Assembly: GCA_963614045.1 (NCBI GenBank)
Contig: CAVEBU010000004.1
Coordinates: 1 to 59,700 of the forward strand
Direction of reading: 5' to 3'
Origin: Alistipes finegoldii
GTDB taxonomy: Bacteria > Bacillota > Clostridia > Christensenellales > UBA1242
Length of the DNA: 59,700 bases
How positions within the stretch are numbered: the stretch's first letter is position 1; every line of letters starts with the position of its first letter. The notes under the pieces were generated by a model, which did not search any database, was not told the origin of the DNA, and was given only the letters and a program-made list of their open reading frames with translations. The translations under genes were made by a program, and so were the position numbers. This document shows positions 1 through 59,384 of the stretch, one piece after another.

Positions 1-786
<786 letters not shown>

Positions 787-9150: not shown

Positions 9151-9239
9151 GGGGGGCTTGGTGCGTGCGTTCGGCACGAACGCACACCGTCCCGCACAAG
9201 CGGGACGCAATACGCTTTCAGCGTATGCACCAAGCCCCC
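9151..9239. repeat. GC-rich four-way-junction repeat, copy 1
   Basis: Outer stem GGGGGGCTTGGTGC/GCACCAAGCCCCC enclosing three perfect hairpins: GTGCGTTCG-GCA-CGAACGCAC, CGTCCCGC-ACAA-GCGGGACG and ATACGCT-TTC-AGCGTAT. Confidence 0.85.
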
Positions 9240-9408
9240 GCCCCCGTTCTATTATTGAGGTGCAGGACACTGCGTATAATTATATAATGATTTTCGCTTT
9301 TGCTATTTTTTGGTTCGTTACGCTCACAACTCCCTCGAATATATGCTTATAAAAAACAATTCACTGTTACTCGTCACTTAAAAATTTGCGAAAAGTGATA
9401 TAAATTTG

Positions 9409-11948: not shown

Positions 11949-12035
11949 GGGGGGGCTTGGTGCGTGCGTTCGTGCCGAACGCACCCCGCCCCGCAAAAGC
12001 GGGGCAAATACGCTGAAAGCGTATGCACCAAGCCC
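11949..12035. repeat. GC-rich four-way-junction repeat, copy 2
   Basis: Same architecture as copy 1. H1 loop is TGC, H2 is GCCCCGC-AAAA-GCGGGGC, H3 loop is GAA. On the minus strand it is followed by GTTTTT. Confidence 0.85.
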
Positions 12036-22267: not shown

Positions 22268-22357
22268 GGGGGGGCTTGGTGCGTGCGTTCGTGCCGAACG
22301 CACACCGCTCCGCAACAGCGGAGCAAAATACGCTGAAAGCGTATTCACCAAGCCCCC
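22268..22357. repeat. GC-rich four-way-junction repeat, copy 3
   Basis: Same architecture as copies 1 and 2. H1 loop is TGC, H2 is GCTCCGC-AACA-GCGGAGC, H3 loop is GAA, with one mismatch in the outer stem (T at 22345). On the minus strand it is followed by GTTTTTT. Confidence 0.85.
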
Positions 22358-22524
22358 ACCCCTTTGTCTAAAGTTACCAGGGTTGAAACACTTGCATATA
22401 ATTATATCTAGCCTTTCATGTTTTAGTGTGCGACTTGTAAAGTTTGTGTTGAAACTTAAAAACCGCACAACTCAAAACAAAACAAATTTTTTAAAAAATT
22501 TTTTTAAAAATCGTGAACATATGT

Positions 22525-41749: not shown

Positions 41750-41807
41750 CAAAAAATTCATGCTTAAATTAGGGGGAATTTACAGGCAATTTCATACCCC
41801 AAAAAGT

Positions 41808-41851
41808 TGCATAGTACCTGCATAGTACTTGCATAGTACCTGCATAGTACC
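41808..41851. repeat. 4 x 11-bp tandem direct repeat (TGCATAGTACC)
   Basis: Units at 41808, 41819 (one C-to-T change), 41830 and 41841. Ends 6 nt before the stop codon of the 41858 gene. Confidence 0.9.
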
Positions 41852-41857
41852 TCAAAA

Positions 41858-42706
41858 TTACCGCTTTTTGCTCGTTTTTTGCTTAAAATCACTCAATTTC
41901 GATACAAACTCACGCAATTTCTCCATTTTGTTCTCGTGTAGTAATTCACTAATTTTTTGATATTCAAACTCACTTTCTTGTTGCTTTTTAATTGCTAAGT
42001 CCAACCTACTTTGAAGTATTTTGTTTTGCGCTTTTAACTCGTTGATTAAAACCGATTTTTTTCTATTATCTATAGCCACATCCATAAGCCTCGAATTGTC
42101 CAATTTTAATTGATAGTTTTGCTTATCCTCAAGCTCTTGTTCCGCCGACCTTTTTACCAGTCTAACCAGCCCCAAAAACAGCGATTGAATCTCTTTCTCA
42201 GATAGATAATTTCTATCCGTTTTTTGACTCGGAATTGTTAAAATTTTGCCACCCAAATTTAGTCTACTTTTCTGCCCTGAAGCAGTAATTTCTGCTGTTA
42301 ATTTTTTAACAAAATCGGGCTTGTTTTTAAGCGTGTTGCGATACTTGTTTTGATACCTAATCGCCGTTGTTTTATCCCCACCCGCAAGCATAAAACAAGT
42401 CGCCCTCACGCTCTTGCCGTTTTCTAACAAAATCGACTTCAAAAGAGCAGTCTCTTCCCTCTCACAAAAGTGACTCGTGTACCCAAGTTTTATGTCGTAT
42501 TTTGTTAAAATTTCACGCACTGAATTGTTACATTTTGCTTCACGAATCAGTCTGTAATAAAAGTTGCGCACGCTATAAATATTTCGCTTGTGATGACTAG
42601 CAAAATTACCAAAAATAGATAGCAAATTCGTTTCCCTTTTACTATTTATAGCATCGACAAGTTCTGCCACTTCATTAATACTCCAACCCAAAATTTTCTC
42701 TTGCAT
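41858..42706 (-). CDS. hypothetical protein with Myb/SANT-like N-terminal repeats and a C-terminal coiled coil
   Basis: Start moved to ATG 42706 (GAGGT RBS). The two segments WSINEVAELV...NIYSVRNFYYRLIRE and EETALLKSIL...TAIRYQNKYRNTLK look like Myb-like HTH repeats. The family assignment is tentative. Confidence 0.35.
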   Translation of the reverse strand: MQEKILGWSINEVAELVDAINSKRETNLLSIFGNFASHHKRNIYSVRNFYYRLIREAKCNNSVREILTKYDIKLGYTSHFCEREETALLKSILLENGKSVRATCFMLAGGDKTTAIRYQNKYRNTLKNKPDFVKKLTAEITASGQKSRLNLGGKILTIPSQKTDRNYLSEKEIQSLFLGLVRLVKRSAEQELEDKQNYQLKLDNSRLMDVAIDNRKKSVLINELKAQNKILQSRLDLAIKKQQESEFEYQKISELLHENKMEKLREFVSKLSDFKQKTSKKR

Positions 42707-42806
42707 TTTTACCTCGCTGACAAAATTTTTAACAAAATTTATATTTTTAATCAAAAAAGTAATAAATTTAGCATAAAAAATAATAAAATACTACGAGGTC
42801 AAATTT

Positions 42807-45595: not shown

Positions 45596-45688
45596 GTTTT
45601 GATAAGCACGCAAAAACTATGAACTGTATAAATTATATAATAATTTACTCTACAAGTTTTGACATCACCTTTTGGGTAAAAAAGGGTA

Positions 45689-45720
45689 AAAAAAGAAAAC
45701 GATTTTTATCGTTTTTATTT
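45689..45720. terminator. AT-rich bidirectional terminator closing the tRNA/repeat locus
   Basis: Stem AAAACGAT/ATCGTTTT with TTTT loop, and A/T runs on both sides. Confidence 0.45.
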
Positions 45721-45747
45721 AAAAACCCTTTATTTACGGGCTTTTTG

Positions 45748-45788
45748 TGGTGCGCTAAAGAAAACTCGAACTCCTAACCTTTGGTTCC
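45748..45788 (-). pseudogene. tRNA-Arg 3'-half fragment (anticodon position 36 to CCA), diverged
   Basis: 41 nt align with tRNA positions from GGAACCAAAGG... to ...GCGCACCA with 6 mismatches, all in the T-loop/T-stem 3' strand and the acceptor 3' strand. No matching 5' half. Confidence 0.75.
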
Positions 45789-45949
45789 TGTTTTGCCAAA
45801 GCAAAGTGCCGTCGCAAGCCTTGACACCACTTGCAAGCAATTGTGTCAATCTCCTTGCTAGGCATACCCCAACGCACACACTTCGCGACGCTTCAGCCGA
45901 ACGTAATGCAATTTCGTTTGCGGTCTACGAAACCAAAGGGGTTATATAA

Positions 45950-45976
45950 ACAAAAAACGCTGTCCATATAGACAGC
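45950..45976 (-). terminator. short hairpin plus T-run inside unit 1
   Basis: GCTGTC-TATATG-GACAGC followed by GTTTTTTG on the minus strand. Confidence 0.45.
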
Positions 45977-45980
45977 ATTT

Positions 45981-46021
45981 TGGTGCGCTAAAGAAAACTC
46001 GAACTCCTAACCTTTGGTTCC
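45981..46021 (-). pseudogene. tRNA-Arg 3'-half fragment, second copy
   Basis: Same as 45748-45788. Confidence 0.75.
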
Positions 46022-46182
46022 TGTTTTGCCAAAGCAAAGTGCCGTCGCAAGCCTTGACACCACTTGCAAGCAATTGTGTCAATCTCCTTGCTAGGCATAC
46101 CCCAACGCACACACTTCGCGACGCTTCAGCCGAACGTAATGCAATTTCGTTTGCGGTCTACGAAACCAAAGGGGTTATATAA

Positions 46183-46209
46183 ACAAAAAACGCTGTCCAT
46201 ATAGACAGC
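46183..46209 (-). terminator. short hairpin plus T-run 4 nt after the tRNA-Arg CCA end
   Basis: GCTGTC-TATATG-GACAGC followed by GTTTTTTG on the minus strand. Confidence 0.5.
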
Positions 46210-46213
46210 ATTT

Positions 46214-46290
46214 TGGTGCGCCATAAGAGGCTCGAACTCCTAACCTTTGGTTCCGTAGACCAACGCTCTATCCAATTGAGCTAATGGCGC
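46214..46290 (-). tRNA. tRNA-Arg (anticodon ACG), CCA encoded
   Basis: Minus-strand sequence GCGCCAT-TA-GCTC-AATTGGATA-GAGC-G-TTGGT-CTACGGA-ACCAA-AGGTT-AGGAG-TTCGAGC-CTCTT-ATGGCGC-ACCA folds as a canonical 77-nt cloverleaf. Confidence 0.95.
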
Positions 46291-46334
46291 AAGAGTATTC
46301 GGGAAGTTGTGGATTACCTCCCAAATACTTATTC

Positions 46335-46363
46335 ATTATACTACAAATTGACTCATAAGTCAA
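46335..46363 (-). promoter_or_regulatory. sigma-A type promoter of tRNA-Arg
   Basis: Minus strand: TTGACT (46358-46363), 17-nt spacer, TATAAT (46335-46340). The ~40-nt leader contains a hairpin AGTATTTGGGA.../...TCCCGAATACT. Confidence 0.65.
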
Positions 46364-46730
46364 TAATTTTGCCCAAAAAATTTTTACAAATATTTTAAAT
46401 TATCAAGAAAAACCGCCGAAGTTTGAAAAACTATCCCTCGTTAAGTCGTAAAATTACTTTGCTATTACCTTGCAAGCCCCCTTTTTTACTCAATCGCCAC
46501 CAAACACGTCTAATAATTACCCTGCAAGCGCAATTATTAACTATTGCGACAAAAAAGATTAGCGAATCACTCCCCTAAACGAACAGCGAATTATTTGCCG
46601 TTTCGTCTTAAGATTGACTTGCTAATCTTTTTGCAATAAAGCATAGTTTGTGGTTTTTGCTTGACTTTTGTACGCTATTTGCGTTTAATATAACAAATTT
46701 CAAGCCGTTGCGTCATCAATTTGTCTTATC

Positions 46731-49700
46731 TCAACTTGTACTAGTATAACCTATAAATTTATCGCCAGCATAAGTGCGTTCAGTGTGCTTACTACTAAGG
46801 TCAACACTTAGTGTTTTTGTAACTTTCGGTGTCCTAAAGCATGCTTCAAAGCCCGATCGAACATACAACGTTACGTTATAATTTGCGTAGTTGGAATCGC
46901 CCGCCAGCGTAATCGAAGTCGCCGTACTTATGCTTGAGGTACTATCCGAACTGGTAAATACTTTCTTGGTACATGTGGTTTCGCTCGAATTCTTTTTCCA
47001 TCCGTATTTCCAATTAGCGTTGAGCAAATATCCGTCAGCATTTGTAAATGTAGCACTAAGGTTAGTAACATATACATATTTTGCGGTGTAATATGTTTTT
47101 GCATACACCCTAGTACCTTTAGTATAAGTCTCGCCTGCTTTCAAAACACCGCCTTCAGTCTCGGAATCGGAAGACAAGCTAATCGTCGGCGCATACGAAC
47201 TTGGCACGATGAATTTCGCTTTAGTTTCAACATATGTGCCTGGCGCTAAGAGGTTGTATCCCGAACCGATAGATTCTTGCACTGGATAAATGTAGAACGT
47301 ATTGTATCCCGCTTGGATATACCCTTTGTTGTTCGAAGTTACGCAACCTAGCGTGGTTAGTTGAGTAACTTTTCCGTCGATAGCGTCACCCGCAGAACCC
47401 GTAAGGAAGCAGTCCGCATAACTCTTGTTGAAATTCCAATTGTAGTTAAACACGTAATTCGACCCGCTCGAAGATTGAGTCATAGATTGACGAGATGACA
47501 ACGTGGATGTTGAAGTATTTTCCACCAATCTTTGCGCCAAAGCCACATTCATCTTGGAAATAGTCAAATTGTTACCGATTGAGGCCTTAATTGTCAAATA
47601 CGAATTGCTTTGAGACGATTGTGTTGCCGAAGCGGTAATATCCGTAGCGCCAATTTGCTTGTAGTACTCAAATACAAAGCCGTCTCTTACGCTCGAAGCT
47701 TCAGCATTTTCAAGGTCGTTTAATAAACGAACGCTATAAGTATATTTTCCGCCGATTACCGAACTATTAATAAACACAGTATTAATAAAGTCGTAAATCA
47801 CGTCAGGGTAACAGGTTTTACCTTCGTTTTGTTTTACGTTGAATGTTTTTGTGACGTTCCCTTTACCCAGATTATATGTAAATTCCGCCGAACTTACTGC
47901 AGAGTTGTAATCAGTAGGTGCTTGAGAGGTTATAGCAATATTACTTTTCTTGAAAGCACCAACTGTGCGGGCGGTTTTGTCAACATCCATATTGATTTTT
48001 ATCGCTGAAATATCGTTAAAGATCTTCAATTTTGGACTGTATGTCCTTGTAAAACTATTGAAACCACGAGTAACTTTGGATTCTAGCAAAGTTTCGTCCG
48101 CATTTGCGTAAATGGAAATATTCCAAACGCTTCCCAACAGCCATTGATTCAAGTCTGAATTACTCAAATTCGTCCCGTACTGGTCATTTTTCAAAATTTC
48201 CGCAAGGTTGACGATGTGCCACCCCGCTGCGCTAGGATTTTGCGCACAAACAGAGCCGACTGTATCATAAGAATACACGAAATTCCCTGTGGAATTCTCG
48301 TTTTTCCTAGTCAAAACTACACGATATTCCACAGTCTTGCTAATCGTGTTGAACCTAAATGGAATATAGTTTTGATAGTAGTAATAATATCCGCAATCAG
48401 CGTATAATCTTGCAAAGTATTGCGAATTTTCCTCTAGCGTTGCCTCGCTTGCATTAAACGATGTTTCCACCGTTTCAAGCCTTACATAGAATGCTAAATC
48501 AGTTTCCGCACCATAGTCACTACTTACCCAATAACCCGCCGAATCGGTGTCTACAGGTGCTACAACTTTGACTTTCGCCGAAACAACTCCGCCATGATAA
48601 TCGCTACTTGTTCCGTTAACTAACTTGTACAAAGTTTGATACAAGCAAGCAACTTCGTACGGATAAACATCTCCGCCTTTATCGTAATCGTATCTAGTCG
48701 CATTAGAATTAACTGCTTTTGCAAATTCACGCATAATTGTATTAATGTCTTTTGTCGCAAATTCGCAAGATACTGTTGTGCCGTTGTAGGTAAATTCCAC
48801 AACATAATTCGTGTCTTGTCTATTAGTTAGCCCAACATACTCAAAGCCGAAGTTTGCATCTCCGCTTCCTTGTGCGTTGATTTCTCTATAAGTGCTTCCG
48901 CTAACGTACAAGTAAGGGTTAAGCGCCATACCAGAGTAATTGCCACTGCCTAATACGTTTGTAATCGTGTTGTTGGAAGTTCTTTGAGTACTATCCGCAC
49001 TAATCAACTGATCAGATTCAGCATTGTCAAACATAAATGTAACTTTGGGCGCAGAATATTGTTTCCTTATGCCCAAACTTACTTGTTCACTTGCTTCACT
49101 TGTGGCAAAATTGTATGAAGGGTTGCTATAGTCAAGCTCGCCCGTTGTCGTTTCGCTCGCAGTTGCCTCGTCCATAACAGCGGTAACAGTGAAATATACC
49201 TTATTTGGAAGTTGGCTATCAAGCCAATTATACAACGCAACCGCATTAGTAGCAGTGCAGTATTTATTCAAAATTACATAACTCTTGTCGCCGTCATTTT
49301 GAATTGGCAAAATCACGCTTTGCTCTTGCGAAAGTTTGCTCAAATCAGTGTAATCAATTATGCCGTTAGCGAAGTTGCTGTATTCAAAAGTTGATACACC
49401 GAGCCTAATATACTTGTTTTTACAAATCGCCTCGTTCGTGCTAGAGACGCTGTTTAAATAGAACTTGTATGTATACTCGCCGTTAGAATTTGCAGTAATG
49501 TAGCCCGAAATTACTCCGCTATTAGAATTTGTGTAGTCAATCACGCAATTCCCGTTTTCGCTATACAAATCACTTGCGCCGTCGTTGTTGTAAATTTCGA
49601 TTTTTTCAATACTAGGTTGCTTAAAGCGAACTGTGTGCTTAAACGTAAAGTAATAACTTGGGTTTAAGCAGTTAAAGTCTGCTAGCGCAATATTCTGCAC

Positions 49701-52700
49701 AACACCTTGCTCTTTAAGAGCCTCGACATACGCCTCCACTTCGGCATTATCTTGTGTAAGGTATGTTCTCACCCATTTTTCGCCATATAATTCAACATCT
49801 TCTAGCAAGCCATCAGCCGACACAAACGCATTTGCGTTCAAATCGTTGTTGTTTATCCACGATTTAATCTTGCAATAATATGTGACAGGAATGTTTGCGT
49901 TGTAGTTTAGCAATTCGGATAGCGTAAACCCGTAAATTCTAATTGAAGAATTTTCTAGTTCGCCGATTTGCCGTAAAGTTCCGTCAGCGTTACGCAAATA
50001 TTCCAAAGGTTGATTCTTGCCTACGGTGTATTGCGAGTTATCTACCACATATAGCGGTAATTTCTTCCCTTTTGCTGAAGCGTTATCAAGCGTGGTAATG
50101 ATATAGTGTGCAAGGTAAGTTCCGTTCTCCTCCTGCTCCACAGTCCACATATTATTTGAACCTGCGTTTGCGTCTAACGTGTTGTAGACAAACAATTCAA
50201 AACCGTTATTGTAGTTGTTTGTATCTTGCAAACTTGTGATTTCGTAAACTTGCTTGTTCTCAAAATCTTCTTCATCTTCAGTCACATAGTCACAACCATT
50301 TAATAGGTGCACTTCCGTCCCGTAATGTTGCGCAGAAATTGTCTTGTATAGATATTCTTGCGGAATACTCGTTTCGGAACTTAAGTAGTAACTAATATTC
50401 GGGTCGTTTTCCGTCAAAGATTGCGGTGTAAGGTATATAAAGAATTTATACTTGCCGTTAACGTCAAGCCCAAAACTTCCGTTTTCGTCAATATAGCAAG
50501 CCCTACCGTCTAGCGAATTAACTTCGCCGTTCCTAAGCAAATTCCCCATTACAAAGCCATAACTAGATGTTTGATTACGGAGTGCTGTTTCGTTTTGCAA
50601 GAAGAATTGCTTGTCACTTGCACTAGCATAAGCGTTATCACAACTATATGTGCCACTTGCATTTTGCTTGAACGCAAAAATGTTGATTTTATAAGCAAGT
50701 TCGGTGTCCACAATATGCGTGTATTGATTTGGAGTAAGCGCCCAATTTAGCACAAAAGCATATCCCGAATCAACTTGCGTTATTCCCAAGCGATAATCAA
50801 GAATAGGCGTTGGAAGTGCTACATAGTGGCAAATGTCGCTATTTAGGTATAGTGTATCACTCGAAGCCCCGTTTTCGTCCTCACAAATCATATACTCAAG
50901 TGCGTACACACCAGCATAATTCAAGCCGTCAAAGAAGTCGTGAATATCAATGCGAACGTTATAGTAGTCCTCCACTCCGTCAAGACGATAAATCCAACAG
51001 TTTCCGTCCTCGCTTTGAATGTAATTCTTACTGCTTGTTAGCAAATCAGCAAGACTCGGCAAACTATATGTGAATTCGTAAATTCTATCCGTCACATAAC
51101 TCGTGCCGTCCCTTAATTTTACACTAACCATAACTTTCTTTGGCATATGCAAAGTGCCGTTAAAGTCCCTAATTGCGTACACGTTAAAACTCAAAATCGC
51201 TTCTTTGTGCTTTGCGTTAGCCCAATTTCTATCGTCCTGCCCATTTACTGTCACAGTCGTGGTGTCTTGTGACTTGGTGGTTAAATACTCGCCGTAAAGC
51301 GAGGTTTTTGCCTCATCAACGACTTCCCAAACGTTCTTAACTTCGTGCGTAACGTACGCAACTGAAGGCTTGAAGTATTGGTGCGCCGTTGCGCTGAATT
51401 CCACCTTGACAAAGTACTCGCCCGCAATAAAGTTTTCCCCGCTTAGCCACTCGCTAGATTTACCCAAACTCTTGATAGCACTAATTAAATCGTAACTAAA
51501 TTTCAGCGAGTCTAAATTATTCAGGTCAACCTCAATTCCACTCAAAACTATGCTAACCGAATCGATATCGCTACCCAAAATCGTATCAAAATTAGCGTTT
51601 TCGTCCAAAGTTATAGCAGTATCCTTGCTAACACGCAACAAACTAATAGTGAATTTCGCATTTGAGTCGTTCGCTAGCAATTCGGTTGCCACTTTTCCCA
51701 AAATATCCTCGTTTGCCGTAATGCTATAGTCAAGCTCGCTCTTCGCTGTCCACGAAGCAGAGATTTCTGGCATTTGCTTGAATTTGTCAAACCCGACAAA
51801 CTCCGCAAGTGCAGGCTCGCTGTCAAGATAGTATTCGCTTTTCAAAACCCTACTAACGCTAACTTCGTTTCTGTCCTCGCCACCCGCAACCAAATATTTT
51901 GTAAGGTCAATTTGGCGGGCTGTGGTTGGGTCAAGAGTTATAACATTTAATAGCGATTTGTCGGACGCTTTGTAAGTTTTTATCACTACCCTAAAAGTAG
52001 GTTGAGTCGTTTGAGTGGTGTACTTGTATCCCAAGGCGTCGTCGTATTGCCACGAAAGTATGCCGTTTGTATTAATTTTTGCATCATAAGGCGCAACAGG
52101 GAATTTTATATCCTTGTAAATAAACTTGTTGCCATAATTTTTGTTTGCTGGGTCAAAAATTCTATCCTTAGCCACATTTCCGTCTTTATCAAGAGCAGTT
52201 GCGGTGATTTGATAGTAATATTCGCCCGCAAGGTAATAACTCTCACTCGCTCTTGTTGTGGTGTCAAAGAAGAATTTTGTCATATCAAAGTACATACAGC
52301 CGTCACTTGTCACAAGCATAAACAAATTATCGTCGTTTTGAGTCAACGAGTAAACAGTTTTCCCGTCCACAATTTCAAGCTTGAGTCGAACGGTTTTGGT
52401 AACTTCCTTGCCTTGTGTATCTTTTAGCAAAACGGAATATTGCGCCGTCATATCGTACGCATTTGTAGGCAAAGTCCACATAAGTGAGCCATTAATCTTG
52501 TAGGCGGTGTTTTTATCCATATTTGCGCTGGTGATTTCAGTCACAACGCAAGTTCCAGCCCCGCCACTGCTAGCGAATTCTGGCATTGCGGTCGTGAACA
52601 CAAAGGACGCCGTTTCGACGCTGTTACTACTTAAGTAATAATCCGTGTTGTCCGCTCCGTCCGAAGCAGTTTGGCGAATCACAAACCAAACTTCGTGCGG

Positions 52701-55700
52701 TCCAATTGTGCTAATTAAATCGTACATGGCAATGCCCAAGTTCGCTTCAGTTTCGTCCGTACTTAAATTCGCAAACGTGCCGAATTTCGTGGCTGTTTTG
52801 GTAGTTGCTGTTTCGTAGTAGTCGTAGTACATAACGTCAACTGAATACTTCTTGTCACTACTTGCGTTGCCAAAAGTTACGTTAATTTTGTTGATATTGT
52901 GGTTTGCTTTGTCGCTGTAACCCAATTCCACACGAGGATCGCTAGGTGTTGCGAATTTCTGATAAAGTTCAAGGTCAAAGGTTACCGTAAGTGCTGATTG
53001 AGCCGTCAAGTTATCAAGCCTATAGTAATCGCCATTTTCCGCCACATAGTAGTAGTAATCCAACATTTCATCGTTTGTGTACGGCATAAGCGAAATCGTA
53101 TTTGCTCCCGCCGTCACGAACCTACTAATGTTGAATTGCGTTGCGTTTTTAATGTTCTCAAAATCGACACTTGCAATTCCGTTAGTTTTGCTTATAACCC
53201 CGAAATCCTGCCCGTTGATTTTTACCATAAAACTTGTCGCTCTGTTTTGTTGCGCACCCGCCTCAGTAATGATTAATTGCTTTCTGTTAAAGTCGTACAA
53301 CTGCTCATAAGCTTGTAGATATTGCGCTTTATCCTGTTCGTTTTCACCAAACACGATTTCGCCGTCTTTAATGTTATTGGATCCAAAGAAGCACTCTGGC
53401 GCAACGACAAAAGCGCTAGCCGTTACCTTAATCACGCCAAACATATTTTTGTACGTGCTACCAAATTCTACCACGTCGGAAGCGGAATAATGTTCTTCAT
53501 CTACACCCAAAATCTGAATCGTAACCTTGTATTCGCCCGCCGATAATTCTCTTGTCGGGTCGTAGCCCAGACTTGTTCCGCTTATCAAATCAAGTCCCGC
53601 AAAGGTCAAACTGTATGCGTAATACGTGCTAAGTAGTGTCTGCTTTTCGGTTGCTGTAAATTGATTTTCGCCAACTTTCCCCATATCAACAAGCACACTT
53701 TTCCCCGTCGCTATGCTTACAAAATTGATAGCAAAACGGTTTTTTGCGAGATTTTGCGCATAGTTCCAAGTAAGAGTTGTCGCAAAGTCACCTGTTTTAT
53801 TCCCCGTCGTGCTGATTTTGGTGGTGTTGACCGCAATCGAATCCATTTTAACCGTATGCACGAAGTCTAGCTTGCACTCGCTTGCCCCGTCAGCGTAAAT
53901 TTTCTTAGTCGAATTTGTCGAAGCCTTTACAAAAATCGTGTACTCACCCGCCGAAAGCGAACTAAAGTTAACTGTAAAATTCGTGCTGACCGCCTCAGTG
54001 TTGATACTGTCAGCTGTTCCCTCTAATACGCTTTCCGAACCGCCTTTTTTAACGATTCGCCACTCGTAATCAGTCACGTATGGGATATTTGTGACGGTTG
54101 CTTGGTTGTTTGTTTCATCAATTGTGACAGCCGTTGGTGAAGAAGTAATCACAAGCGGTAAAGTCACATTGCCGTTGCTCGTAAGCCCTTTGTAAGCCAC
54201 AAGCGTCTTGCCGTCAATCGTGCAGACTGCATCGGAAATCGCAATTGTATATTTAGCGTTCTGTCCCTTGTTTGCGACAATCAGCCTTTTAATGTCGTCA
54301 GCATCTATTGTAAATTGCGGATTTGAGCTTGCACTTGCAACAACACTGCCCGCAATACTTACCTCGTAAGTTTGCCCGCCAAACAAGTTGCTGTTGTTGT
54401 TCTGGTGAGTGATTTTGCCGATATATTTGCCGTCTTCGTAGTCAACTACCAAAGTTGCGCCCGTCGTGTTAAGTGAATAGATATAGTAGTCGCCAGCTCT
54501 TCCCGTAAAGGACGCTTGCTCCGTTCCGTTTAAGGTTACTTTTACGCCCGTAATCTCGAAATGCACCAAGTACGCCTGCTTGTCGTAATCATCGGGCAGA
54601 GTAATTGTTGCGTTTGCGTTTTTTGTCGTGCCGTCCGTAGTTTGTGAACTCGTGCTGTCTGCATTTTGTATAGTCACTGTGTAGCTATAAGTCGTTTCGT
54701 AATCGCTTGAGTCGTAAGTACTGTCGCCCGTCCACTTCACGTTAACTTGATTGCCTGTCGATTTCTCAAAAATGAAGTTTTGCGGTGAAGCCACTTGCCC
54801 GATTGTATATACGTAGGTCGTTTCGCTCGCCAAACACAAGTTTGTTGCGTCTTGCGGTTGTGCAGTGATAACAAATGTTAGCACCAAGTTAGACTGAGGA
54901 GATTCGCCCAAAACCGCTTGCAAAATTCCCTTATTTTCGGTCACGCTTGCGTAATTTAGCGTGCATATTTGCCTACTAGCAGACGTCGTGGACGCACCCT
55001 CCATATTGAATTTGTAAGTCGTGCCGTTATACTCGAAACTCAACACTGCGGAGTATTTAATCACGCTTGCATTTTCGTCACTAATTGGGTCGAAAGCGAC
55101 GCTAATGCTCTTTTGCGCTTCGCTATAAACTCTGCTGTATTGGATATTCTTGACATTGTCAACTGAAGTAGCGCAAGTAATTGTCGCCGAATCGTCACTC
55201 CAAAGGCTTGCAACGTAAGTTCCGTTATTTGACGCACGAATTCTAACCTCATACGTGCCACGAACGTTCTTGAGCATATCAGCAGTTATTTTCGCCTCGC
55301 CATCGCTAACAGTCACCGCATCGGCTTGTCTAATTAAACTCCCGTTTTGGTAGAAACCAATATCAATTCGCTTTGCGTTCTCGCCAAGATTGGTGTTGGT
55401 AACTTTAAGTGTAACGCTAGTTTTTGCCGAAACAACCGTTCCGCCCGAAATCTTAAATGATGGCTTAGCAAGTTGCTTTTGATAAGGTAGGCTCGCAGAA
55501 GTTTCACTACTTGCCACAATCAGTTCCCCGTCAGCGTAAATCGATGACTCGCTATATGCTTTTGTGCGGAAGTAGACACGATAAACACTATCCGTCTGCT
55601 CTCTCATCCACGACTTAACCTCTTCACTTAATTGCGTGCTAAGTGTCGTACCGTCCCCCGCTAACTCAAACCAAGCCACACTGCCGTCCACTGAGTAAAA

Positions 55701-58700
55701 TTCGCCACGCAAATTGCTAATGCTCGCCTCGACACTCAATTTCACGTCGCTTTCGTTCCTGCCATTTTGAATAGTCGCAGTCACAGAGTCGCAAGTTAGC
55801 GTAATGGTGTCGGTTTCCAAATCTTGTTTTGCGGAAACGTTCGCAGGTTTGTCAGCAGTGACGATATTAATGTATTCACAAATCGCTTCACCGCTTTCGC
55901 TTACAACCACATTATCATTTAGTCGCACCGCTTTTAAGGTCACCACGAATTTGCCCGCTTGGGTGATATCTAGCGCAACATATTGAAAAATGTCACTGTT
56001 GGAAGTTTTGAGAATTTCCTCTGCTTTCCCGCCGTTCAGTGTCAAAATATACTTATCGGCAAGGCTGTTTTTGAGGATTTTTGCGACAACTTTATTCACA
56101 AGTGTTGTGTCCGTTCCGCCATACTTGACGACCTCAAAAGTCGGGGTCGCTAGCGTCAATACCCATGTATGCGTAACTGCGTTTGCGTCCGTAATATGAG
56201 AGTCGCTGTTGGTTGCTTGCACGCTAAATTTGTACGTCCCCAAACCATACTTGCTAAACAAATTAATCGTGTTCAGCCGAATTACCGCCGTACTGCCGTC
56301 CACGTATTCGTCAAAATTCAAACTAACATCTTGCACCGCTACACCGTTAAAAGTAACTGCAATCGTGTAGCCGTCCGCACCAAACACCGAATTCCACTGC
56401 AAATAAGTTTCGTCGTCCGCATGCCTAAAACTTTCCACGTCCACATCATCTAAATCGATAATGAACTGATAATCGATTTGCGAATTTGCTTCCGCTCCAG
56501 AAATTGCGTAAATTTTCGCCCAAATCGTGTATTCGCCCGCATCAAGAGTTGTTGATTCGTCGCCGTTTATTAGTTTAGTAAGCGAATAAACCAGCTTGCC
56601 GTCCGTCAAGTCACTTTCGCCCGTTTCGTCGTCATAAAGTTCGCTATGAGTGATAGTTCCGCTCTTTAAAGTACGCCCAGCCTTGCTGATTTTGTACTCA
56701 ACTTTTTGCGTAAACTTCAGCGATTTCGAGTCGAATTCGAACGTCAAAACGTCACCTTTCGCCGTAATGGTCGGCGCAGTTATGCAAAAGTCGTTCGTAA
56801 TCTCGTCCGTAACGGCCTTGTATTGCGTGATAAATTCTTGCGTCACTAACTTTTCATCAACGACACTTGCACCCGCATAAATCGTTATGTTCGTCGTCGA
56901 GTATAACGGCAAATCGTCCGTCATATTCGCTAGATAGTACACAACACCGTCGGAAACGGTCATATTTTGAGGGGTTTTGTCGCCAAACTGAATTGCAAAA
57001 TCGGTAACTCTTGAATCGAATTGCGGAATGCTTACCTTGATTTTGTTCGTTTCCCCGCTTATGAGTTCATAAGAAATCTCGACGTCGTCCGCACTTGTTA
57101 TCGTGTAAGTGTACTCATAAGTCGTTGCAACAAACTCGCTCGCTTCGTATTCGTCCGTCATCGCAAGACAGTTAATCTTGAAAGTGTTCTTCCCCAACGT
57201 GAGCGAATTCGTGATATTCAATTTGTTTTCGTTTGCCGTCCAGCTCGTCCCGTTTACCCAAATCCCATATGCTCGAGCGGTAGGAACGGCTGTCCAACGT
57301 GCTTCAACTGAATTGCCGTCGTCAAGTTTAACAAACTCAATCGAATTCACATCCACCGCCGAATGCTTCAAAATATCAATGTATTTATACTCGACTGCGT
57401 TACTGTCGATTACTTGCACATTTTCGCCCGTCGGCGCAAGTGCGATAAGTTTGAAATTGTAGGCTTTCGGCTGAGTCACTTTGCCTAATAACGCTTGGAT
57501 TTGCGTTGTGTCCTCGATTAATTGCCCCGCTTGATACAGGTTAGGCTGAGAGAAATTTAGAGTCGTTGCGTCCAAATCCTCGCCCGTAATCGTAAGGCGG
57601 TAGCCCGTCGCTCCCACTGTGCCATAGAACGAAAATTTAATCGTGCTTGTGCCGTCGTTCAAATTCGCACGCACGCACTTTAACCCCGTTGGCGAATCGA
57701 TTCTTTCCTTGTACAAGAAGAACACTGACTCCGTCTTTTCGGACGAATTGAAGAATTTGCTGTAATTAGTTTTTGGAATCGTCACTACAGAAATCGCATA
57801 CCAGCCTGTCGCCTTATTGTTACGCTTCAGCGCCTCAGTTAAGTTGACGCTAGTACTATTCGCACCCGAAACAGTCACGCCAAAGGCAAAAGCGCTTTCT
57901 TTTCCCTCCGCCGTTGCTTGATAAATCACGCACGAATACCCGTCAATGTAATCATCTAGCCCAACATTTATGCCGTCAAGCACCCAATTCGCCGTAAGGT
58001 TCTCCTCGTCCGAATTTACACTCAAATTTGCGACGCTTTCAAGGGTTGTTTTGACACTGCCCTCCTCGCTCCACTCGGAAAAATCACCATCCGTCACAAA
58101 TTCATGTTCCGCTCTCGCACACGCTTTTATTTGCACCCGAACGAAATCATACGCAAAATCGTTATCTAGCGCCCTGGTGTAGCGGTTGCCGACGTTATTG
58201 TCAATCGTGGCAAAGGTCACGAATTGCCCCGTCGTCCCCTCTCGCCCTTGCAAAACAATTAAGTAATCGCTAGCAAGCGGAATTTCCGCCCAATCCACGT
58301 TTAGCATCGTGCCGACCATAGAAACTTTTATCGAGTCGGCGGAAATCGTGCTTAATTTTTGGGTGATTGAATACGAAATAACGTTGCTTGCAAACTTATT
58401 CGAATCCATTCCCTCCATAGCAATCGCAACACCAACAACATAGACAGTATGCCCGCCCAAGACATTTCGGCTTGCGATATCGTTTAGCGTAAACGTGAAA
58501 TTTTGTTGCCCGCCAATTTCCGTTTTGGAAATCGTCCGCACCGCACTGCCGTCCAAGTAAATCACGTATTCATTTATATACTGGTCAACGTTCCAAGTGA
58601 TTTGCCGAACGTCCGAAAGCAGAGTTTTTGGATTTTCTGCAAAATTCGCACTCAACGTAGGCGCAACAATCTCGCTCGCTTTGGAGTAAGTCTTGCACTC

Positions 58701-59384
58701 GCTAAAATCACTGTTGGTAATGTATTCGTTAATCTCTTGCTTGTTAGGGTCGTATGCCGTCGCACAAACTTTCACCTTAAACATAGTCACGTCAGGGTGG
58801 CTTGCGACGTAATTAGACAAGTCAAATTCAGTCGAAGTCGAATAAACCGTTTCTGTAGGCGTGTTTGTCGCCTCGATTAACAGCATATAACTTTTTGCCT
58901 CAGTAACCTGCTTCCAACTAAACACCTTTTCGCTAATCATAACATCGCTTGGCGTGTCAAGTTTAAGCGTTTTCGCCTTGTAGACAGGCTTAGATTCTAG
59001 CGAGTGAAACACTGGCAAACTGTGTATAGCACGAACAGTAAAGGAGTGCTTCCCGACCGTCGCATACTTATGTAAATCGATATAATTCGTCTGCGTGGAC
59101 TCAGTACTTTTGCCGTCAATAATGACGTTATAGCTTATTGCACCGCTCACCGAATCCCACCTTAGAACCCAGTCATCACTTATTGCCAAATTATTCGGCG
59201 CACTCAACCGCTCAGTACGGTTAATTTCGTCCAAACCGCCACTGTTTTTGTTATTTACAATTGCCAAAACGCCACCAACGGCGACCCCGACAAATACCAA
59301 AACTGCGACTATTATTCCTGCAATCTTTTTTGCATTTAACATACTTTTACCCCAATTTTTAAGTGACAATAAATCTTTCCTCAA
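46731..59384 (-). CDS. giant (4217 aa) N-terminally anchored surface protein of tandem FN3/Ig-like modules
   Basis: Single uninterrupted 12,654-nt ORF. TM/signal-anchor IAGIIVAVLVFVGVAVGGVLAIV lies near the N-terminus. Recurrent ~100-130-aa modules carry the W..V..A..Y.(I/V) signature (e.g. LRWDSVSGAISYNVIIDG, FSWKQVTEAKSYMLLIE, ARWTAVPTARAYGIWVNG, LQWNSVFGADGYTIAVTF). No LPXTG or other C-terminal anchor. The start is TTG 59384 or, better on RBS spacing, ATG 59342. Confidence 0.8.
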   Translation of the reverse strand: MRKDLLSLKNWGKSMLNAKKIAGIIVAVLVFVGVAVGGVLAIVNNKNSGGLDEINRTERLSAPNNLAISDDWVLRWDSVSGAISYNVIIDGKSTESTQTNYIDLHKYATVGKHSFTVRAIHSLPVFHSLESKPVYKAKTLKLDTPSDVMISEKVFSWKQVTEAKSYMLLIEATNTPTETVYSTSTEFDLSNYVASHPDVTMFKVKVCATAYDPNKQEINEYITNSDFSECKTYSKASEIVAPTLSANFAENPKTLLSDVRQITWNVDQYINEYVIYLDGSAVRTISKTEIGGQQNFTFTLNDIASRNVLGGHTVYVVGVAIAMEGMDSNKFASNVISYSITQKLSTISADSIKVSMVGTMLNVDWAEIPLASDYLIVLQGREGTTGQFVTFATIDNNVGNRYTRALDNDFAYDFVRVQIKACARAEHEFVTDGDFSEWSEEGSVKTTLESVANLSVNSDEENLTANWVLDGINVGLDDYIDGYSCVIYQATAEGKESAFAFGVTVSGANSTSVNLTEALKRNNKATGWYAISVVTIPKTNYSKFFNSSEKTESVFFLYKERIDSPTGLKCVRANLNDGTSTIKFSFYGTVGATGYRLTITGEDLDATTLNFSQPNLYQAGQLIEDTTQIQALLGKVTQPKAYNFKLIALAPTGENVQVIDSNAVEYKYIDILKHSAVDVNSIEFVKLDDGNSVEARWTAVPTARAYGIWVNGTSWTANENKLNITNSLTLGKNTFKINCLAMTDEYEASEFVATTYEYTYTITSADDVEISYELISGETNKIKVSIPQFDSRVTDFAIQFGDKTPQNMTVSDGVVYYLANMTDDLPLYSTTNITIYAGASVVDEKLVTQEFITQYKAVTDEITNDFCITAPTITAKGDVLTFEFDSKSLKFTQKVEYKISKAGRTLKSGTITHSELYDDETGESDLTDGKLVYSLTKLINGDESTTLDAGEYTIWAKIYAISGAEANSQIDYQFIIDLDDVDVESFRHADDETYLQWNSVFGADGYTIAVTFNGVAVQDVSLNFDEYVDGSTAVIRLNTINLFSKYGLGTYKFSVQATNSDSHITDANAVTHTWVLTLATPTFEVVKYGGTDTTLVNKVVAKILKNSLADKYILTLNGGKAEEILKTSNSDIFQYVALDITQAGKFVVTLKAVRLNDNVVVSESGEAICEYINIVTADKPANVSAKQDLETDTITLTCDSVTATIQNGRNESDVKLSVEASISNLRGEFYSVDGSVAWFELAGDGTTLSTQLSEEVKSWMREQTDSVYRVYFRTKAYSESSIYADGELIVASSETSASLPYQKQLAKPSFKISGGTVVSAKTSVTLKVTNTNLGENAKRIDIGFYQNGSLIRQADAVTVSDGEAKITADMLKNVRGTYEVRIRASNNGTYVASLWSDDSATITCATSVDNVKNIQYSRVYSEAQKSISVAFDPISDENASVIKYSAVLSFEYNGTTYKFNMEGASTTSASRQICTLNYASVTENKGILQAVLGESPQSNLVLTFVITAQPQDATNLCLASETTYVYTIGQVASPQNFIFEKSTGNQVNVKWTGDSTYDSSDYETTYSYTVTIQNADSTSSQTTDGTTKNANATITLPDDYDKQAYLVHFEITGVKVTLNGTEQASFTGRAGDYYIYSLNTTGATLVVDYEDGKYIGKITHQNNNSNLFGGQTYEVSIAGSVVASASSNPQFTIDADDIKRLIVANKGQNAKYTIAISDAVCTIDGKTLVAYKGLTSNGNVTLPLVITSSPTAVTIDETNNQATVTNIPYVTDYEWRIVKKGGSESVLEGTADSINTEAVSTNFTVNFSSLSAGEYTIFVKASTNSTKKIYADGASECKLDFVHTVKMDSIAVNTTKISTTGNKTGDFATTLTWNYAQNLAKNRFAINFVSIATGKSVLVDMGKVGENQFTATEKQTLLSTYYAYSLTFAGLDLISGTSLGYDPTRELSAGEYKVTIQILGVDEEHYSASDVVEFGSTYKNMFGVIKVTASAFVVAPECFFGSNNIKDGEIVFGENEQDKAQYLQAYEQLYDFNRKQLIITEAGAQQNRATSFMVKINGQDFGVISKTNGIASVDFENIKNATQFNISRFVTAGANTISLMPYTNDEMLDYYYYVAENGDYYRLDNLTAQSALTVTFDLELYQKFATPSDPRVELGYSDKANHNINKINVTFGNASSDKKYSVDVMYYDYYETATTKTATKFGTFANLSTDETEANLGIAMYDLISTIGPHEVWFVIRQTASDGADNTDYYLSSNSVETASFVFTTAMPEFASSGGAGTCVVTEITSANMDKNTAYKINGSLMWTLPTNAYDMTAQYSVLLKDTQGKEVTKTVRLKLEIVDGKTVYSLTQNDDNLFMLVTSDGCMYFDMTKFFFDTTTRASESYYLAGEYYYQITATALDKDGNVAKDRIFDPANKNYGNKFIYKDIKFPVAPYDAKINTNGILSWQYDDALGYKYTTQTTQPTFRVVIKTYKASDKSLLNVITLDPTTARQIDLTKYLVAGGEDRNEVSVSRVLKSEYYLDSEPALAEFVGFDKFKQMPEISASWTAKSELDYSITANEDILGKVATELLANDSNAKFTISLLRVSKDTAITLDENANFDTILGSDIDSVSIVLSGIEVDLNNLDSLKFSYDLISAIKSLGKSSEWLSGENFIAGEYFVKVEFSATAHQYFKPSVAYVTHEVKNVWEVVDEAKTSLYGEYLTTKSQDTTTVTVNGQDDRNWANAKHKEAILSFNVYAIRDFNGTLHMPKKVMVSVKLRDGTSYVTDRIYEFTYSLPSLADLLTSSKNYIQSEDGNCWIYRLDGVEDYYNVRIDIHDFFDGLNYAGVYALEYMICEDENGASSDTLYLNSDICHYVALPTPILDYRLGITQVDSGYAFVLNWALTPNQYTHIVDTELAYKINIFAFKQNASGTYSCDNAYASASDKQFFLQNETALRNQTSSYGFVMGNLLRNGEVNSLDGRACYIDENGSFGLDVNGKYKFFIYLTPQSLTENDPNISYYLSSETSIPQEYLYKTISAQHYGTEVHLLNGCDYVTEDEEDFENKQVYEITSLQDTNNYNNGFELFVYNTLDANAGSNNMWTVEQEENGTYLAHYIITTLDNASAKGKKLPLYVVDNSQYTVGKNQPLEYLRNADGTLRQIGELENSSIRIYGFTLSELLNYNANIPVTYYCKIKSWINNNDLNANAFVSADGLLEDVELYGEKWVRTYLTQDNAEVEAYVEALKEQGVVQNIALADFNCLNPSYYFTFKHTVRFKQPSIEKIEIYNNDGASDLYSENGNCVIDYTNSNSGVISGYITANSNGEYTYKFYLNSVSSTNEAICKNKYIRLGVSTFEYSNFANGIIDYTDLSKLSQEQSVILPIQNDGDKSYVILNKYCTATNAVALYNWLDSQLPNKVYFTVTAVMDEATASETTTGELDYSNPSYNFATSEASEQVSLGIRKQYSAPKVTFMFDNAESDQLISADSTQRTSNNTITNVLGSGNYSGMALNPYLYVSGSTYREINAQGSGDANFGFEYVGLTNRQDTNYVVEFTYNGTTVSCEFATKDINTIMREFAKAVNSNATRYDYDKGGDVYPYEVACLYQTLYKLVNGTSSDYHGGVVSAKVKVVAPVDTDSAGYWVSSDYGAETDLAFYVRLETVETSFNASEATLEENSQYFARLYADCGYYYYYQNYIPFRFNTISKTVEYRVVLTRKNENSTGNFVYSYDTVGSVCAQNPSAAGWHIVNLAEILKNDQYGTNLSNSDLNQWLLGSVWNISIYANADETLLESKVTRGFNSFTRTYSPKLKIFNDISAIKINMDVDKTARTVGAFKKSNIAITSQAPTDYNSAVSSAEFTYNLGKGNVTKTFNVKQNEGKTCYPDVIYDFINTVFINSSVIGGKYTYSVRLLNDLENAEASSVRDGFVFEYYKQIGATDITASATQSSQSNSYLTIKASIGNNLTISKMNVALAQRLVENTSTSTLSSRQSMTQSSSGSNYVFNYNWNFNKSYADCFLTGSAGDAIDGKVTQLTTLGCVTSNNKGYIQAGYNTFYIYPVQESIGSGYNLLAPGTYVETKAKFIVPSSYAPTISLSSDSETEGGVLKAGETYTKGTRVYAKTYYTAKYVYVTNLSATFTNADGYLLNANWKYGWKKNSSETTCTKKVFTSSDSTSSISTATSITLAGDSNYANYNVTLYVRSGFEACFRTPKVTKTLSVDLSSKHTERTYAGDKFIGYTSTS

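Follow-up and report, generated by a model that had tools for sequence, protein, structure and literature searches.

Two identical 233-bp units behind a tRNA-Arg(ACG) gene: a possible scar of an element integrated at the anticodon loop

How does a tRNA gene come to be followed by two identical blocks of DNA, each closing with a second and somewhat different copy of the gene's own 3' half? The question is raised by one whole public contig of 59,700 bp (CAVEBU010000004.1 of assembly GCA_963614045.1), which is called the window here and on which all coordinates are given. On its minus strand, an intact gene for tRNA-Arg(ACG) is followed directly by two units of 233 bp that match base for base. 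The explanation we lean toward is that the locus is the decayed and now inert remnant of an element that integrated in the anticodon loop of the tRNA gene, and that this remnant was duplicated once by slippage at 8 nt. In our judgment this is the likeliest single explanation, while falling a little short of probable.

The tRNA gene and its displaced 3' end

Read along the minus strand, the locus opens with a sigma-70-type promoter, TTGACT-17-TATAAT (46363-46335; 11/12 consensus matches), and, in the interval between the promoter and the tRNA, a leader hairpin GGGAGG...CTTCCC read from the sequence (46301-46322; 6 bp including one G-U). The tRNA gene itself (46214-46290) has an encoded CCA, scores 64.7 bits with the Rfam tRNA model, and is the only tRNA that ARAGORN finds in the window. 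It runs into an intrinsic terminator with a 12-bp stem and a T-run (46177-46214, from a consensus scan), which at the same time forms the head of unit 1 (45981-46213). Behind the terminator and a spacer, the unit continues with an inverted copy of tRNA positions 29-46, covering the anticodon arm and variable region (46155-46172, plus strand), a 133-bp core (46022-46154) that is restricted to the species and for which no homologue was found, and a diverged copy of the tRNA 3' half (positions 36-76; 45981-46021, by sequence comparison). Unit 2 (45748-45980) is 100% identical and repeats the terminator (45944-45981, consensus scan), the inverted arm (45922-45939, plus strand), the core (45789-45921), and a distal, attR-like 3' half (45748-45788). 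In narrower bounds, the two terminators span 46214-46187 and 45981-45954. Tandem Repeats Finder reports a period of 233 bp in 2.2 copies over 45748-46254, a span that takes in the tRNA's own 3' half (46214-46254). Straight after the distal 3' half there are two more hairpins with T-runs (45688-45746), terminator-like as read from the sequence and below detection in the consensus scan; they are a candidate for the original end of the tRNA gene. The preliminary description of this locus had listed the consensus promoter and leader hairpin, the intact gene with its CCA and hairpin/T-run, and the two identical units, and each of these was found again, with ARAGORN, Rfam and the terminator scan in agreement on the gene, and Tandem Repeats Finder and direct comparison on the units.

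The displaced 3' halves do not resemble the tRNA evenly along their length. Their first 24 nt are the tRNA sequence, and this 24-nt block, GGAACCAAAGGTTAGGAGTTCGAG, is present in three direct copies at the locus, with 0 expected by chance. Past the block, the units read GAGTTTTCTTTAGCGCACCA and the tRNA reads GAGCCTCTTATGGCGCACCA, with six differing positions within the last 17 nt, all of them in the T-loop or in the 3' strands of T-stem and acceptor, where they had been placed before. Had the six differences been scattered randomly, their confinement to the distal 17 of the 41 nt would have a probability of about 0.005. Such clustering is expected if the two halves differ in origin and share only the recombination segment.

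This geometry is familiar from genomic islands. The island signature used by Islander (Hudson, Lau & Williams 2015, PMC4383910) consists of a complete tRNA gene, an end fragment of it displaced downstream and oriented alike, and a crossover subsite at the anticodon loop. The window has the full tRNA gene and a cognate 3' fragment in one replicon, with the fragment downstream in direct orientation; the identity begins at position 36, in the anticodon loop, which together with the T-loop/acceptor junction is one of the accepted crossover subsites, and it extends from there to the 3' end; and the regenerated gene has a terminator of its own. In other respects the locus differs from these islands. 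There is no tyrosine integrase between gene and fragment and no cargo, only 192 bp between the sites, or 233 bp per unit, against accepted lengths of 2-200 kb. An inverted anticodon arm lies inside the interval, and the joint of the duplication lies outside the expected crossover. The earlier remark that no integrase or cargo is present and that the element is only about 190 nt long is therefore borne out. With no integrase, and with an interval a tenth of the accepted minimum, the locus can only be called a remnant.

The CIMEs (cis-mobilizable elements) offer a second comparison. They are integrase-less, att-flanked remnants of streptococcal integrative and conjugative elements (ICEs); they form tandem arrays by accretion. 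The units share with them the att-like direct repeats at the flanks, the lack of recombination genes, and the tandem arrangement. CIMEs, however, are kilobases long, have a known partner ICE with the same site, and accrete by site-specific recombination. No integrase-bearing element with the same site as the units was found in phages, plasmids, viral contigs or JGI metagenomes, and the middle 3' half is of the diverged type, which speaks against site-specific accretion of the array. Hence, of the proposal that the units are integration scars of the CIME kind (for a review of CIMEs, see PMC5704250), the fit of the geometry to the island signature stands, and CIME-like status is not shown.

The searches behind this statement covered several collections. 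By BLAST, the unit had no match among phages and plasmids, and the tRNA or its 3' half met only phage tRNA-Arg genes or chance matches in phages. The pattern of the inverted arm had 45 matches in IMG/VR viral contigs, all of them true tRNA-Arg genes with A37 or coding sequence; a 33-mer of the core, the 24-nt block, and the combined architecture of tRNA arm plus inverted arm had 0 matches each in the same contigs. In the JGI metagenomes, a pattern of tRNA end, gap and inverted arm gave 4 chance matches. With blastn (word size 7) and nhmmer, the core had no second match in the window apart from unit 2, and none in the compared loci outside the units themselves. Synteny was no more productive. 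Among GTDB genomes, a collection that does not include the window's species, homologues of the 262-aa protein encoded downstream of the tRNA led only to Christensenella sp. UBA4651, with no tRNA nearby; the giant protein encoded upstream led to one 1.3-kb contig that ends before any tRNA; and the Macro-domain gene of a sister species led to distant homologues not beside tRNA-Arg. Outside the same species and the sister species, these searches found nothing. This lack of relatives is weak evidence, because the organism is poorly sampled.

Under the integration reading, the locus would have been built in four steps. A tyrosine-integrase element bearing tRNA positions ~36-76 would have recombined with the gene. 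Going by the geometry, the element's copy would then complete the working tRNA and supply its own terminator, and the host's original 3' half would be displaced downstream, in front of the old terminators, and decay there. A near-total deletion of the element would have left 192 bp of it, comprising the terminator, the inverted arm and the 133-bp core. Lastly, by the logic of the sequence, the 233-bp block made of these 192 bp and the displaced 3' half would have been doubled once in this strain, through replication slippage or another microhomology-mediated event between two GCGCACCA ends. The two terminator-like hairpins past the distal fragment, seen beside the different strong terminator of the tRNA, fit a displaced gene end. 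In another contig of the species (L002), the distal 3' half is the variant GAGTTTTCTTATGGCGCACCA, with the true acceptor strand ATGGCGCACCA retained, which fits a displaced and decaying original. The gene content between tRNA-Arg and the gene of the 262-aa protein varies in related species, as is typical of an integration hotspot; the 3' side of the tRNA is such a variable hotspot in this clade. The core's GC content of 0.50, against 0.27-0.34 in the flanking spacers, and its lack of other copies also count in favour of this reading. Judged from the sequence, the units are probably unexpressed and would have no role beyond that of the first terminator.

As for the hotspot region itself, different gene sets split tRNA-Arg and the 262-aa gene in the related species (L008/L013, 1-1900; L011, 1-3900; L007). 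One of these species has a Macro-domain gene and a 253-aa gene there, and another has LRR, HTH and YpsA-like genes.

Several observations weigh against an integration scar. No integrase or phage gene is present anywhere in the 59.7-kb contig, and the phage, plasmid, viral-contig and metagenome searches turned up no relative at the same site. The sister species has the tRNA, the terminator and the inverted arm but neither the core nor a displaced 3' half. From this layout, the terminator and the inverted arm may belong to the native flank and not to an element, and the core and 3' half could have come later, by a local insertion or duplication. The inverted arm is also kept at 16/17 positions in the sister species despite a third-codon-position identity of 0.52-0.56, which an inert scar would not predict. 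In addition, with 2 mismatches, the window's displaced 3' half has lost its pairing with the resident 5' acceptor strand.

If the integration reading is true, the locus would be a compact example of island decay, with about 190 bp left between the regenerated gene and the fragment, and it would mean that such scars can be amplified by ordinary slippage. There is also a practical bearing on tRNA annotation and island-finding software, which discard such short intervals or may miscall the fragments.

One unit or two

The way in which the second unit arose can be read from the type of the middle 3' half. With A for the tRNA's 3' half, B for the diverged copy, and X for the 192 bp between them, the order in the window is 5'half-A-X-B-X-B-flank. 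The middle copy is of the diverged type (TTTTCTTTAG...) and not of the tRNA type (CCTCTTATGG...). A crossover in the 24-nt block or the anticodon loop, or the reintegration of an A-X circle, would be expected to leave an A-type copy in the middle. (A circular junction, if there were one, would be ...GGCAAAACAG joined to GAACC...CCTCTTATGGCGCACCA.) At their ends, A and B share nothing but the 8 nt GCGCACCA, so a B-type middle copy places the joint of the duplication in this microhomology and not in the anticodon loop. Such a joint points to slipped-strand or microhomology-mediated duplication rather than site-specific accretion. The earlier suggestion that site-specific recombination had accreted the units in tandem is thereby contradicted.

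Slipped-strand mispairing between short direct repeats is a general mechanism of tandem duplication. The locus resembles its products in the 8-nt microhomology at the joint, in the 100% identity of the copies, in the occurrence of one or two copies among strains, and in another small duplication polymorphism of the same spacer. The difference is that slippage accounts for the second unit only, and not for the origin of the first. The other polymorphism concerns a 12-nt motif, GTGATGTCAAAA (window 45657-45668), which occurs once in the window and twice in tandem in L004 and L002; it is doubled also in a related species (L007).

Whether the tandem is real has to be asked separately. The window contig ends inside a 16S rRNA gene (window 1-786, model positions 1-808); it therefore looks like a short-read draft or a metagenome-assembled genome (MAG), and the copy number of two rests on the assembly. 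Three other contigs of the species, >99% identical to the window throughout and with a few point differences in the core, have a single unit each between the tRNA and the downstream flank, with unit 2 missing. Two of them are MAG contigs (L003 and L004), which are weak evidence on this point because MAG assemblers can collapse tandem repeats. The third, L002, comes from Logan, whose graphs use k = 31 and hold every 31-mer as unique by construction (PMC12424806), and this uniqueness makes Logan contigs more informative on copy number. Another such contig, L001, from a run that carries a 262-aa flanking protein identical to the window's, starts exactly 30 nt (k-1) upstream of the junction between 3' half and flank. 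A break at k-1 marks a node with two continuations, here into the flank or into another unit, and thus a real tandem in that sample. L002 crosses the same junction unbroken. The k-1 rule also accounts for the starts of L002 and of the sister-species contigs L008 and L071, which have an identical 30 nt of the tRNA in common before they part.

From these contigs we conclude that one unit would be the basic state and two units a strain variant. The copy-number variation that the preliminary description wanted checked thus appears at the contig level, as single units in L002-L004 and as a branch signature in L001. The tandem is probably real and polymorphic, with its exact copy number unproven. 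That unit 2 is an assembly artefact, produced by walking a graph loop twice over a true single-unit locus, strikes us as decidedly improbable. A draft contig that ends in a 16S gene, two units without a single difference, and three single-unit contigs of the same species are all what such an artefact would leave behind. It does not explain why an independent k = 31 assembly is broken k-1 nt ahead of the point where the 3' half meets the flank, which is expected only if the reads continue in two ways after the 3' half, or why the single-unit sample L002 is unbroken at the same point. The question of an artefact is in any case one of copy number only, and stands apart from the origin of the locus.

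The inverted anticodon arm and the rival explanations

The wider interest of the locus lies only in the inverted arm, 18 nt just past the terminator that are antisense to the anticodon arm of the tRNA itself. On the plus strand it reads GGTCTACGAAACCAAAGG, with one mismatch to the tRNA (A for G at position 37) and 0.02 such matches expected by chance; a copy in each unit had been described before and is indeed there. The sister species, defined here as the species of protein P0003 and seen in two samples, has a tRNA 3' end identical to the window's and then a terminator of different sequence. After this terminator it carries CCTTTGGTTACGTAGAC, which matches the window's inverted arm at 16/17 positions. 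The spacing from CCA to the inverted arm is 42 nt in the sister species and 41 nt in the window, and the single difference again lies opposite tRNA position 37. The DNA around this 17-mer is unalignable with the window, and neither a core nor a copy of the 3' half was found within the next 9 kb. With third-codon-position identity between the two at 0.52-0.56, silent sites are near saturation, and a neutral 17-mer would be retained at 16/17 with a probability of only ~1e-4 to 2e-3. The inverted arm is thus either constrained or repeatedly corrected against the tRNA. Going by these sequences, the clade may possess the module of tRNA, terminator and inverted arm natively and not owe it to an element. 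The inverted arm is missing from a more distant relative whose tRNA-Arg differs in sequence. In 132 other tRNA contexts, with one mismatch allowed, no inverted self-copy of 16 nt or longer turned up within 300 nt.

What the arm might do can be considered at the level of RNA or of DNA. In the predicted fold of a read-through RNA, a 19-bp helix of the anticodon arm and variable region with the inverted arm replaces the cloverleaf; the fold has -55.3 kcal/mol and z = -5.7, and 0/200 shuffles are as stable. The modelled pairing would suit a trap for mis-terminated precursors or a signal for their processing. The inverted arm would suit a role in the DNA just as well, as the inverted half-site of a recombinase specific to this tRNA gene. 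In either case it appears constrained, and the integration scar does not account for it. That the arm is an undescribed working element, be it a cis-antisense read-through trap or a half-site of a hairpin-type miniature element mobilised in trans and amplifiable in tandem at a tRNA gene, is a long shot. Should the arm prove functional, it would represent a new type of cis element for a tRNA gene.

The core and the rest of the unit give little sign of a structured RNA. Over the 151 nt that open with the inverted arm and close with the core, the fold has -44.6 kcal/mol against -45.9 for shuffles (z = +0.31), and thus the structured core of the preliminary description lacks statistical support. 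The whole unit reaches only z = -2.25, a value owed for the most part to the hairpin of the terminator and to the closing stem of tRNA-derived sequence. This closing stem had been given as 11 bp; the 11 bp are present, as the inverted repeats CCTTTGGTTTC and GGAACCAAAGG that bracket a 132-bp segment, and one of the pairs is G-U. The nested helices listed earlier are also present as inverted repeats. Among them, the central palindrome GCAAG..TTGACAC-N15-GTGTCAA..CTTGC (46047-46091 in unit 1, 45814-45858 in unit 2, from an inverted-repeat search) is real and unremarkable for its length. Rfam 15, applied to the whole window at the gathering score and to the locus at E up to 10, matched the tRNA alone, and no known family was found in the unit. 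A consensus scan found no sigma-70-like promoter inside the unit on either strand, and each unit lies directly behind a strong intrinsic terminator. As the 3' half has no acceptor 5' strand, it offers no tRNA-like substrate for RNase P or RNase Z. Homologues of the unit are confined to strains >99% identical, and apart from the 18-nt arm no conservation was found beyond the species. Taken together, these results lend no support to the other earlier proposal, a tRNA-tailed structured small RNA: there is no Rfam match, no internal promoter and a terminator in front, the core is no stabler than shuffles, the acceptor 5' strand is missing, and the sister species has neither core nor 3' half.

A number of other candidates were tried and set aside. 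Six-frame peptides of the unit had no match in Pfam or PHROGs, and so there is no recognisable gene remnant. The small open reading frames (36 aa on the minus strand, 47 aa on the plus strand) have no ribosome-binding sites, and the stop codon of the 36-aa frame is not conserved in L002. A group I intron or self-cleaving ribozyme gives no Rfam signal, and the core is too small for one. For a transfer-messenger RNA or tRNA-like RNA, ARAGORN finds none and the acceptor 5' strand is lacking. The T-box leader model RF00230 is unmatched at E up to 10, and the plus strand matches no tRNA model, as a remnant of an opposite-strand tRNA-Arg would. A CRISPR-transposon homing spacer, a TnpB/IscB guide RNA and an IS110 bridge RNA were judged on context only: there are no such genes, and the left flank is unfit.

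Three explanations rival the integration scar. One of them does without any mobile element: the clade would have the tRNA, terminator and inverted arm as its native arrangement, and the 3' half and core would have arisen by local replication error, e.g., by a template switch at the hairpin that the anticodon arm makes with its inverted copy, followed by slippage in this strain. We consider this unlikely, if the least so of the alternatives. The layout of the sister species favours it, with the inverted arm at the same spacing (41-42 nt after CCA) and no core or 3' half, as do the microhomology-type joint of the tandem, the 12-nt duplication polymorphism in the same spacer, and a window free of integrases. 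A local error, however, leaves the 133-bp core without a source in the window or the related loci, and the core's GC content of 0.50 is foreign to the flanking spacers (0.27-0.34). It also has to explain a copy whose limits, the anticodon loop exactly and the CCA end, are those of the integrase pattern, and six differences that cluster in the distal 17 nt, unlike those of a recent local copy. The second rival is a functional RNA, in which the inverted arm, and perhaps the unit, pairs with the anticodon arm in read-through RNA and traps or marks the precursor, e.g., for RNase III, or in which a tRNA-tailed small RNA is made. The stable 19-bp duplex, the conservation of the arm near silent saturation, the rarity of inverted self-copies and the GC-rich core within an AT-rich spacer all argue for it. 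The balance is nevertheless clearly unfavourable, since the strong terminator precedes the inverted arm, the unit has no promoter, no Rfam match, no unusual stability of the core and no 5' partner strand for RNase P, and what is conserved is at most the 18-nt arm, which the distant relative with a different tRNA-Arg does not have.

The remaining rival, to which we give only a slim chance, is a live non-autonomous miniature element or recombination substrate, whose inverted arm and direct 3' half would fold, as single-stranded DNA or a cruciform, into a mimic of half the tRNA target, and which a recombinase encoded elsewhere would insert, invert or amplify. Folded single-strand attachment sites are known from the attP hairpin of the CTX phage and from integron attC. 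The locus resembles these in its inverted repeats some 130 nt apart, which could fold into a partial target mimic, in the lack of its own integrase, and in its occurrence in arrays. It differs in having no dif/Xer or integron-integrase context, no R''/R' box consensus and no second site; of the attC boxes R''-L''...L'-R' (RYYYAAC...GTTRRRY), only a partial GTTAGGA is seen in the unit by eye. The likeness is one of form only. Besides the 11-bp inverted repeats, a second near-symmetry, CTTTGG-N11-CCAAAG at the junction of core and 3' half, would suit such an element, and so would the varying number of units among strains and the conservation of the inverted arm. On the other hand, a G-to-A change disrupts the CTTTGG symmetry in two strains, the segment has one and the same orientation in all four contigs compared, no second site or other copy of the core was found, no recombinase is encoded in the 59.7-kb window, and the type of the middle copy indicates that the duplication bypassed an anticodon-loop crossover.

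Genomic context and other repeats of the window

The genes of the window are ordinary chromosomal genes of a spore-forming Firmicute, among them those of SpoIVB peptidase, ArgR, LepA, RNase J, AddAB and D-Ala-D-Ala ligase. Downstream of the tRNA lie the genes of the 262-aa protein, which is membrane-anchored and of unknown function, and of a Zn peptidase. The nearest named relative found is Christensenella sp. UBA4651, with 51% identity over the 262-aa protein. Directly upstream of the tRNA there is a giant open reading frame of 4217 aa (46731-59384, minus strand) without a Pfam domain; 5.8 billion protein clusters hold a single homologue of its C-terminal 269 aa, at 52% identity. Past the end of the frame stands a long imperfect hairpin, AAAAAGATTAGC...GCTAATCTTTTTT (~46550-46645, minus strand), which is probably its terminator, and which matches the 'lactis-plasmid' RNA model at a sub-threshold 20 bits against a cut-off of 70 bits.

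Two other repeats were seen farther away from the tRNA. An 11-nt tandem repeat, TTGCATAGTAC, in ~5 copies (41807-41861) lies just upstream of an open reading frame of 298 aa (41858-42754, minus strand). A GC-rich intergenic repeat of ~95 nt is present in three copies (9151-9244, ~11950-12035 and 22269-22362) and has no Rfam match. Its predicted fold is a closed three-way junction of -67.4 kcal/mol with z = -8.5, and one of the hairpins shows compensatory changes (GTCCCGC/GCGGGAC, GCCCCGC/GCGGGGC, GCTCCGC/GCGGAGC), while two hairpin loops are reverse-complemented between copies. This repeat may be an element of the repetitive extragenic palindrome or miniature inverted-repeat transposable element kind (REP/MITE-like), or else a structured RNA not described so far. 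As a candidate RNA it seems to hold more promise than the 233-bp units.

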